From Escherichia coli (GTDB lineage: Bacteria; Pseudomonadota; Gammaproteobacteria; Enterobacterales; Enterobacteriaceae): 64,000 nucleotides of DNA. The notes beneath the pieces were generated by a model. That model was given only the letters and a program-made list of their open reading frames with translations, did not search any database and was not told where the DNA came from. The stretch is taken from NCBI RefSeq assembly GCF_003334765.1, contig NZ_QOWT01000021.1; one strand, written 5' to 3'. The translations under genes were made by a program, and so were the position numbers. This document shows, piece after piece, positions 39,108-39,342 of the stretch; position 1 is the stretch's first letter, and each line of letters opens with the position of its first letter.

Positions 39108-39120
39108 TTCGAAAGCGCGC

Positions 39121-39180
39121 ACGGACAGTCCCCTCGCCCCCTCGGGGAGAGGGTTAGGGTGAGGGGAACAGGCCCGCACA
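39121..39180. repeat. GC-rich imperfect palindromic repeat (boxC-like) downstream of adk
   Basis: CCCCTCGCCCCCTCGGGGAGAGGGTTAGGGTGAGGGG read directly; resembles the boxC family of intergenic repeats. Assignment to that family is from memory. Confidence 0.5.
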
Positions 39181-39342
39181 AGCAAACTTATCAGCAATCT
39201 CAGGCCGGATATTCATTCGGCCTTTTACAAAAACCTCAATCTGCGCTATTCCTTTTTCTGATTTGACCTCTCACAGCAATTAGTTCTTCTTCCTCACTTT
39301 TCCGCTACAATTATCAACAAGTTGAATCGATAAGAGGCGGTA

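Follow-up and report, generated by a model that had tools for sequence, protein, structure and literature searches.

A BoxC repeat in the adk-hemH spacer of Escherichia coli and a separate hairpin between ybaY and atl

The stretch of Escherichia coli DNA considered here, a 64,000-nucleotide portion of contig NZ_QOWT01000021.1 (the window), contains a GC-rich palindromic element just downstream of adk and a perfect palindrome between the convergent genes ybaY and atl. The original prediction, made from the letters of the window, treated the two as related, boxC-like repeats that might have a role at mRNA ends. The question that this locus raises is whether they belong to one repeat family and what, if anything, they do. 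The window sequence matches that of E. coli K-12, and adding 458712 to a window coordinate gives the coordinate in K-12 NC_000913.3. The reading that we hold with considerable confidence is that the adk element is a solo BoxC copy, a passenger in the 3' untranslated region (UTR) of adk that lies within an allele-specific block, and that the ybaY/atl palindrome is a separate, locus-specific hairpin.

Identity of the adk element and turnover of its spacer

The adk coding sequence occupies positions 38463 to 39107 on the plus strand (K-12 annotation 497175-497819; open reading frame [ORF] list), with its TAA stop codon at 39105 to 39107, and positions 39108 to 39342 are the entire adk-hemH spacer. 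The GC-rich element had been placed at 39121 to 39180, and the 37-mer CCCCTCGCCCCCTCGGGGAGAGGGTTAGGGTGAGGGG was indeed located inside that interval, at 39130 to 39166. Positions 39131 to 39165 match the published BoxC/TM pattern, CCCTCNCCC-N3-6-GGGNGAGGG-N3-GGGNGAGGG (Holder 2015). On the plus strand, a C-arm, CCCTCGCCC (39131-39139), is followed by loop 1, CCTCG (39140-39144), the first G-arm, GGGAGAGGG (39145-39153), loop 2, TTA (39154-39156), and the second G-arm, GGGTGAGGG (39157-39165). The exact reverse complement of 39120 to 39170 is listed as eco:4_BoxC (PMC2267715 supplement). The core, 39131 to 39166 on the plus strand, is TM_ECO no. 6, a type A motif with one mismatch, sense+, at K-12 497843-497878 (Holder 2015 Table 1, PMC4666352), as well as member 15 of HPG1, labeled 'adk', with its midpoint at K-12 497867 (Kaplan 2016 Table 1, PMC5100583). 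A hidden Markov model (HMM) built from 22 published BoxC members and searched with nhmmer scored the element at 55.1 bits (E=3.4e-16). The catalogue identity, the HMM score, and the pattern match therefore establish that the adk element is a member of the BoxC family, which is more than the resemblance originally suggested. The element was already known, being listed in three published catalogues.

The full BoxC unit, GCGCACGGACAGT...GGCCCGCAC, is about 62 bp long and runs from 39117 to 39178 on the plus strand, as delimited by the HMM score and by the extent of similarity to paralogues 3' of recA, trmJ, gntP, and lptG. A further paralogue is present in the ycjD-fabI spacer. The possibility that BoxC is the core of a larger repeat was ruled out because the likeness among six spacers was limited to 41 to 63 bp. 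When a 63-nt query from the adk BoxC was compared with 5426 complete E. coli genomes, the median number of related places per genome was 19 and the maximum was 35. There were 2 to 5 such places in E2348/69, ST131 strain MNCRE44, and ST95-32, and 19 to 35 in most other E. coli. This spread among lineages is consistent with published copy numbers of 29 for E. coli 55989 and 1 for the B2 strain IHE3034. The orientation of BoxC copies with respect to the preceding gene at first appeared to be uniformly codirectional (5 of 5). This was a sampling effect, according to a tally of the table of Kaplan 2016, in which the RNA is G-rich for about 13 copies downstream of genes and C-rich for about 15. A scan of 38300 to 40000 against Rfam at E values up to 10 returned sub-threshold chance matches only, such as Antizyme_FSE at 19 bits (gathering score, 40).

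The ybaY/atl palindrome is unrelated to the adk BoxC. The BoxC HMM scored it at 7.1 bits (E=0.33), over 12 nt only, and it is not in the eco BoxC, TM_ECO (Holder 2015), or HPG (Kaplan 2016) catalogues. A third G-rich segment is absent, as the sequence after CCCTCTCC-GCCC-GGAGAGGG, namely, TTAGTAGTTCC, belongs to the atl coding region. In the same 5426 genomes the ybaY/atl query found a median of one place per genome, of near-constant length, and it was at least 80% covered in 5394 of them. Thus, the resemblance to boxC held for only one of the two sites, and the proposed kinship between the sites did not survive, because the ybaY/atl palindrome is a single-copy, conserved orthologous hairpin with compensatory changes. 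The CCCTCTCC/GGAGAGGG core that the two sites were said to share was half right. Although GGAGAGGG is present in the adk element (39146-39153), the left arm there reads CCCCTCGCCCC instead of CCCTCTCC, and the strict core CCCTCTCC-N(0-30)-GGAGAGGG has one match in the window, at ybaY/atl only. On its own GGAGAGGG has three matches in the window compared with 0.99 expected, and 11 of 100 shuffles reached three, so the word is not enriched. The real common part of the two sites is the 12-mer GGAGAGGGTTAG, and its TTA at ybaY/atl is the complement of the TAA stop codon of atl. The methodological lesson is that a shared G/A-rich word of 8 to 12 nt is not evidence of family membership. The claim that neither site is a repetitive extragenic palindromic (REP) sequence was correct for both. 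The REP consensus palindrome is of the GCCGGATG type, and it was found in neither the adk element nor the ybaY/atl palindrome.

The spacer that carries the adk BoxC is polymorphic. The K-12-type adk-hemH spacer was at least 80% covered in 2913 of the 5426 genomes (ca. 54%), and other alleles, for example, those of ST131, strain 472, and AMSCJX02, are 104 bp shorter. Genome comparison showed that the short allele is a replacement, in which a 157-bp block (39109-39265; strand not assigned) comprising BoxC, the adk terminator, and unique sequence is swapped for 54 bp of unrelated sequence that contain a 12-bp hairpin of their own (positions 309-362 of loci L006, L007, and L008); in ST131 this hairpin has no U-tract. 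The 77 bp proximal to hemH (39266-39342, plus strand), presumed from their conservation to be the hemH promoter and 5' UTR, are common to both E. coli alleles, Citrobacter, and two other relatives, but the adk-proximal part is not. In these outgroups the adk-proximal slot contains other hairpins or REP-like palindromes (REP-like in Citrobacter and another relative; L143-L145), and no BoxC was found in the slot of Citrobacter and the two other relatives. As each outgroup has a different element in the slot, the polarity of the adk polymorphism is undecidable.

Comparable variation was found at recA-recX, where the BoxC allele, present in 1635 of the 5426 genomes, has a 190-bp block in place of 16 bp immediately 5' of the recA terminator that the alleles share. 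Neither a clean empty site nor a target duplication was found at adk or recA, only block replacements. Across E. coli strains, intergenic change was reported at 39% for TM loci versus <1% for controls (Holder 2015, PMC4666352), and this published hypervariability is independently reproduced at adk and recA. Hairpin elements come and go in the half of the spacer next to adk, which is relevant because adk is a gene used in multilocus sequence typing.

How BoxC might promote such turnover is suggested by the behavior of the motif in vitro. A single strand containing the C-arm and both G-arms forms a very stable intrastrand purine-motif triplex, with a melting temperature of 70 to 82 C, as measured by circular dichroism (CD) and nuclear magnetic resonance (NMR) on type A mm oligonucleotides. 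CD of oligonucleotides revealed a G-quadruplex (G4) and a hairpin as alternative folds (Kaplan 2016, PMC5100583). It is most likely that any activity of BoxC would be at the DNA level, with a single strand folding into a very stable hairpin or intrastrand triplex. Such folded DNA would be expected to stall replication or repair, which could concentrate small intergenic rearrangements at BoxC loci.

Spread of BoxC and its association with DUF559 nuclease genes

The BoxC pattern is not confined to E. coli. A scan of one genome per species with GGGAGAGGGNNNGGGTGAGGG found at least 141 matches at at least 120 loci, and the matches listed include no enterobacterium. Among the matches listed, the pattern was present in multiple copies within single metagenome-assembled genomes (MAGs) of Alpha-, Gamma-, and Deltaproteobacteria and also (L015-L134) in Verrucomicrobia, Armatimonadota, Nitrospirales, Candidatus Gracilibacteria, and an unclassified bacterium/MAG. 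The range of the motif is thereby extended past the 262 proteobacterial genomes in which 3610 TM motifs were reported in 2015 (Holder 2015, PMC4666352). Although the search pattern did not require it, a complementary C-arm was present upstream in nearly all of the matches listed, and 84 of the 141 conform to the full published TM pattern. The flanks of the repeats are alike within a genome and unlike between genomes. In a 28%-GC Candidatus Gracilibacteria MAG (JALNXF01; L090-L106, e.g., L101, L102, and L103), many copies lie in frame hundreds of codons deep in genes, where they are translated as PHPNPLPEGEG or ALTPTLSQRERE. The host genes encode LepA, a MiaB-like protein, an RlmD-like protein, and a class I tRNA synthetase.

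For some 30 years, to our knowledge, BoxC/TM has stood as an orphan repeat family, and we know of no enzyme hitherto assigned to it. It is possible, and we consider the chances to be appreciable though short of even, that BoxC copies, including the one at adk, are orphaned or nonautonomous ends, like those of miniature inverted-repeat transposable elements (MITEs), of a selfish cassette that encodes a DUF559 protein (a Vsr-like PD-(D/E)XK nuclease) between two BoxC-type terminal inverted repeats. The nuclease would recognize or cut the BoxC ends, and E. coli ycjD would be a resident copy, proposals to which we give the same tentative standing. As an account of where the copies come from and how they spread, this explanation does not conflict with the adk element being a 3'-UTR passenger.

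The physical association between DUF559 genes and BoxC-type repeats was directly observed. At locus L146, gatA is followed by the repeat CCCCTCTCCCC TTGT GGGAGAGGG TCG GGGAGAGGGG (883-916) and then by a DUF559 ORF, which is followed by the repeat CCCCTCTCCC TAA CCCTCTCCC ACAA GGGGAGAGGGG (1245-1281) and then by gatB. These repeats are 34-nt terminal inverted repeats that differ in loop 2 only (the reverse-complement copy has TTA in loop 2). The same repeat-DUF559-repeat layout is found in Afipia (L052, 3166-3217 and 3567-3609), and in the Gracilibacteria protein of L102 the DUF559 segment is bracketed by motif-like peptides. Of 146 diverse DUF559 representatives, 40 contained strict motif-encoded peptides, as did 67 of 120 YcjD-like proteins, whereas none of 240 controls did. 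The 67 YcjD-like proteins end in PSP[RQK]PSP, mostly PSPRPSP*. The peptide PSPRPSP plus a stop codon is encoded by CCC-TCA-CCC-CGG-CCC-TCT-CCC-TGA, which is type B BoxC on the C-rich strand. Where both peptide types occur, the G-strand type precedes the domain and the C-strand type follows it in 8 of 10 cases.

E. coli itself provides further evidence for a cassette origin. The 3' end of K-12 ycjD (L009, 2386-2422) contains a significant partial BoxC (E=5e-7). Located 3' of ycjD (L009, 2260-2440) are a degenerate duplicate, of about 45 bp, of its own 3' end (GAGACGGTGCTGGAGAATATTC...CTGAACCG), a decayed G-rich motif, and the intact BoxC TM9. The ycjD gene is present in 3378 of the 5426 genomes, and ycjD and its BoxC copies are jointly absent in ST131 and O157:H7. 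Among the inverted TM pairs of K-12, TM(+) precedes TM(-) in 4 of 5, and each pair consists of one type A and one type B motif (Holder 2015, PMC4666352). Deletion of the ORF from a DUF559 cassette would leave just such a TM(+)/TM(-) pair. Furthermore, the Vsr/DUF559 clade includes a known homing endonuclease (PMC3424549).

Upstream of fabI in ST131 and O157:H7 (L147 and L148, 1842-3564), a TetR regulator gene and a resistance-nodulation-division (RND) efflux gene stand in place of ycjD and BoxC. Homology to K-12 stops there 38 nt before TM9.

Other results argue against a cassette origin. Only two DUF559 ORFs were found in 1.05 Mb around the 141 copies listed, and a six-frame HMM search found no DUF559 remnants beside the adk, recA, trmJ, gntP, and lptG copies. 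For the solo copies at adk and recA, neither a clean empty site nor a target-site duplication was found. O157:H7 strains lack ycjD yet contain 15 to 29 BoxC copies, and a simple relation between copy number and ycjD was rejected for this reason. Holder 2015 (PMC4666352) found no link between the motif and mobile elements. Moreover, an equally valid interpretation of the association is that preexisting BoxC sites are targets into which DUF559 cassettes home, so that BoxC would be a preferred landing site rather than an element end; both the direction of causation and the enzymatic link are conjectural.

In the literature searched, no published link between DUF559 and BoxC/PIT/TM was found. The DUF559 association is the only new lead from this locus, as the adk and ybaY/atl findings themselves change nothing. 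If the cassette explanation is true, a DUF559 nuclease acting on BoxC structures would account for the dispersal of the repeat and also for why BoxC loci, among them the adk-hemH spacer, are hypervariable. The association makes the origin and function of BoxC/PIT/TM experimentally addressable through the question of whether YcjD or another DUF559 protein binds or cuts BoxC.

The adk 3' end and possible roles of BoxC in RNA

The original prediction suggested mapping of mRNA ends by Term-seq to evaluate a role of the hairpins in transcript end formation. The adk 3' end maps to K-12 497939/497940 (+), which is window 39227/39228 (Adams 2021 supplementary file 1). This is the end of the U-run of a second hairpin, 61 nt beyond the BoxC core. 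The Term-seq tables (Adams 2021) list no other 3' end near adk and none at K-12 4978xx, i.e., none at BoxC. The second hairpin, which the original prediction did not mention, is the actual adk intrinsic terminator (AGGCCGGAU-AUUC-AUUCGGCCU at 39202-39222 plus UUUU; 39202-39228 overall, plus strand), as identified from its fold and from Term-seq. It has a 9-bp stem (-13.2 kcal/mol; z=-5.0) and lies 35 nt 3' of BoxC. A stricter scan rule, which requires 5 or more T among 8 bases, does not recognize it, but its GC stem is followed by a U-run at the end of which the 3' end maps. Scans for consensus promoters and terminators found nothing at the adk BoxC or at ybaY/atl, consistent with the earlier statement that both hairpins lack a U-tract. 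Mapped 3' ends coincide with neither of them, contrary to the suggested mRNA-end role.

Because the mapped 3' end lies beyond BoxC, at a hairpin-plus-U terminator, BoxC is transcribed inside the adk mRNA 3' UTR. Within this RNA, BoxC is predicted to form a hairpin of -28 kcal/mol located 21 nt past the stop codon (15-bp stem with a 4-nt bulge; -28.4 kcal/mol; z of about -3.0 versus shuffles). The literature and this locus support the conclusion that the adk BoxC is neither a terminator nor a promoter. Holder 2015 (PMC4666352), in summarizing earlier tests, reports no promoter or terminator activity of BoxC. For annotation purposes, the second hairpin should be designated the adk terminator and BoxC should be considered 3'-UTR cargo.

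It is improbable that the BoxC hairpin is instead a functional RNA element of adk, either a terminator or a barrier to 3'-to-5' exonucleases that stabilizes the mRNA. The stability of the predicted hairpin and its position shortly after the stop codon are in favor of this possibility, and Kaplan 2016 (PMC5100583) deemed a terminator role plausible. When the BoxC core was searched for in the ca. 60-nt contexts of all 3' ends of Adams 2021, three loci were found, with 3' ends 1 to 10 nt past BoxC hairpins: lldD (K-12 3781065, +), downstream of cstA (632098, +), and antisense to rluF (4231270, -). However, at all three the C-rich arms come first in the RNA, opposite to the adk orientation, and none of the approximately 13 copies in the adk orientation has such an end. 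This 3-versus-0 asymmetry is anecdotal, with too few loci for significance. In addition to the negative results of the earlier tests as summarized by Holder 2015, the position of the adk 3' end at the downstream terminator argues against a terminator role, and about 46% of E. coli have no BoxC at adk.

Still less probable is the proposal of Kaplan 2016 that the motif is a switch between G-quadruplex, hairpin, and duplex that regulates transcription of a neighboring gene, here hemH, 177 nt downstream. The plus strand of the adk element does have four G-tracts with 3-nt loops, and oligonucleotides gave CD evidence for G4 and hairpin forms. However, NMR favored the triplex over G4, and TM copies have no bias in orientation, distance, or neighboring gene class (Holder 2015, PMC4666352). 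Furthermore, the hemH-proximal 77 bp are conserved with or without an upstream BoxC, and therefore the hemH control region appears not to need it. The assessment that the function of these repeats is poorly defined agrees with the literature.

The ybaY/atl hairpin and comparison with known systems

The perfect palindrome between ybaY and atl, AACCCTCTCC-GCCC-GGAGAGGGTT, lies exactly where it had been described, at 17248 to 17271 (plus strand), with a 10-bp stem and a 4-nt loop. Its fold is -19.9 kcal/mol (z=-5.6 versus shuffles). It begins 8 nt past the ybaY stop codon (17237-17239) and fills nearly the whole of the gap between the convergent stop codons of ybaY and atl, which are 30 nt apart. 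Two bases of the right arm are also part of the atl stop codon (17270-17272, minus strand), an overlap that constrains the stem sequence.

Ten enterobacterial genera have orthologous hairpins, whose stems have no fewer than 5 different sequences. The tesB-ybaY-atl synteny and a convergent gap of 28 to 38 nt (74 nt in Buttiauxella) are retained in Salmonella, Citrobacter, Lelliottia, Phytobacter, Dryocola, Buttiauxella, Intestinirhabdus, and one further enterobacterial lineage. In each of these relatives a hairpin, weak in Intestinirhabdus, ends at or within a few nucleotides of the atl stop. Where orthologous hairpins include G.U pairs, the pairs form solely on the ybaY-sense strand. The O157:H7 allele has an extra left-arm C matched by an extra right-arm G, a different loop, and a G.U pair that results from a C-to-T change. 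In Dryocola and Buttiauxella a textbook GC stem plus TTTTT occupies the ybaY/atl position. These comparisons suggest that the hairpin has been conserved by selection on RNA structure. The orthologues and the position of the palindrome indicate that it is best regarded as a locus-specific 3'-end or terminator hairpin of ybaY, and perhaps of atl too, which would make it an ordinary conserved 3'-end structure. In E. coli isolate DCE7 (L012, 560-964), ISEc13, an IS4-like insertion sequence, is inserted in the loop/right arm of the hairpin, and atl is displaced.

The least probable of the alternatives, and a very unlikely one, is that the ybaY/atl palindrome is a decayed BoxC, an inner hairpin left after loss of the outer arm: the shared 12-mer GGAGAGGGTTAG, the rank of the site as the second-best BoxC HMM match in the window, the inner CCCTCTCCC-N3-GGGAGAGGG palindrome of BoxC variants eco:1 and eco:16, and the deletions in TM pairs that leave simple hairpins (Holder 2015, PMC4666352) are outweighed by the HMM E value of 0.33, the same CCCTCTCC/GGAGAGGG hairpin in Salmonella, which has no TM_ECO at all (Holder 2015), the different stems at this position in other genera, the explanation of the TTA of the 12-mer as the complement of the atl stop, and the constancy of a site that, unlike BoxC loci, is not hypervariable.

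Several points weigh against the view that the window contains a BoxC passenger prone to rearrangement and a separate terminator-like hairpin. The E. coli ybaY/atl hairpin has the stem but no U-tract, and the tables of Adams 2021 list no 3' end at ybaY/atl on either strand. The BoxC hairpin may modestly affect the decay of adk mRNA. The DNA-structure mechanism of instability is unproven because dimethyl sulfate (DMS) footprinting in vivo detected no triplex at a chromosomal TM, and the hypervariability may reflect the arrival and departure of repeats, or nuclease action, rather than stalled replication.

The PIT element, a name that reportedly goes back to Hoyne and Maher in 2000, is the same family as BoxC. 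So are TM_ECO (PMC4666352) and the HPG1/HPG2 G-quadruplex motifs (PMC5100583), and the adk element is literally a listed copy. It shares with that family the three-segment pattern, an intergenic site, many copies per genome, and a hypervariable locus, with no difference. The ybaY/atl palindrome differs from BoxC/TM_ECO in having no third segment, in being single copy, and in being uncatalogued. REP sequences and BIMEs are, like BoxC, short GC-rich imperfect palindromes in 3' UTRs and intergenic regions, but their consensus differs and REPs are tied to RAYT transposases.

MITEs with an autonomous partner are alike in having many short copies and few protein-coding copies, the latter represented here by the DUF559 cassette with 34-nt terminal inverted repeats at L146. 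The differences are that the BoxC copies have no demonstrated target-site duplication, transposase, or clean empty site, and that the enzyme proposed for them, a Vsr-like PD-(D/E)XK nuclease, does not belong to the known transposases. Vsr-fold homing endonucleases, such as the group I intron endonuclease in the Vsr/DUF559 clade (PMC3424549), belong to the same fold clade as DUF559. The likeness extends to the insertion of a small freestanding DUF559 gene in a conserved operon or gene, as in the gatA-gatB spacer and inside the RlmD-like gene. The DUF559 cassette differs in having no intron or intein context, and its activity on BoxC is putative. The Gracilibacteria copies resemble Rickettsia palindromic elements in lying in frame within genes, for example, lepA and the miaB-like gene.

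With intrinsic terminators the second adk hairpin shares the GC stem, the U-run, and the mapped 3' end. No U-tract and no mapped 3' end are found at the BoxC hairpin or at the ybaY/atl hairpin of E. coli, and the latter occupies the position of a canonical terminator in its Dryocola and Buttiauxella orthologues.

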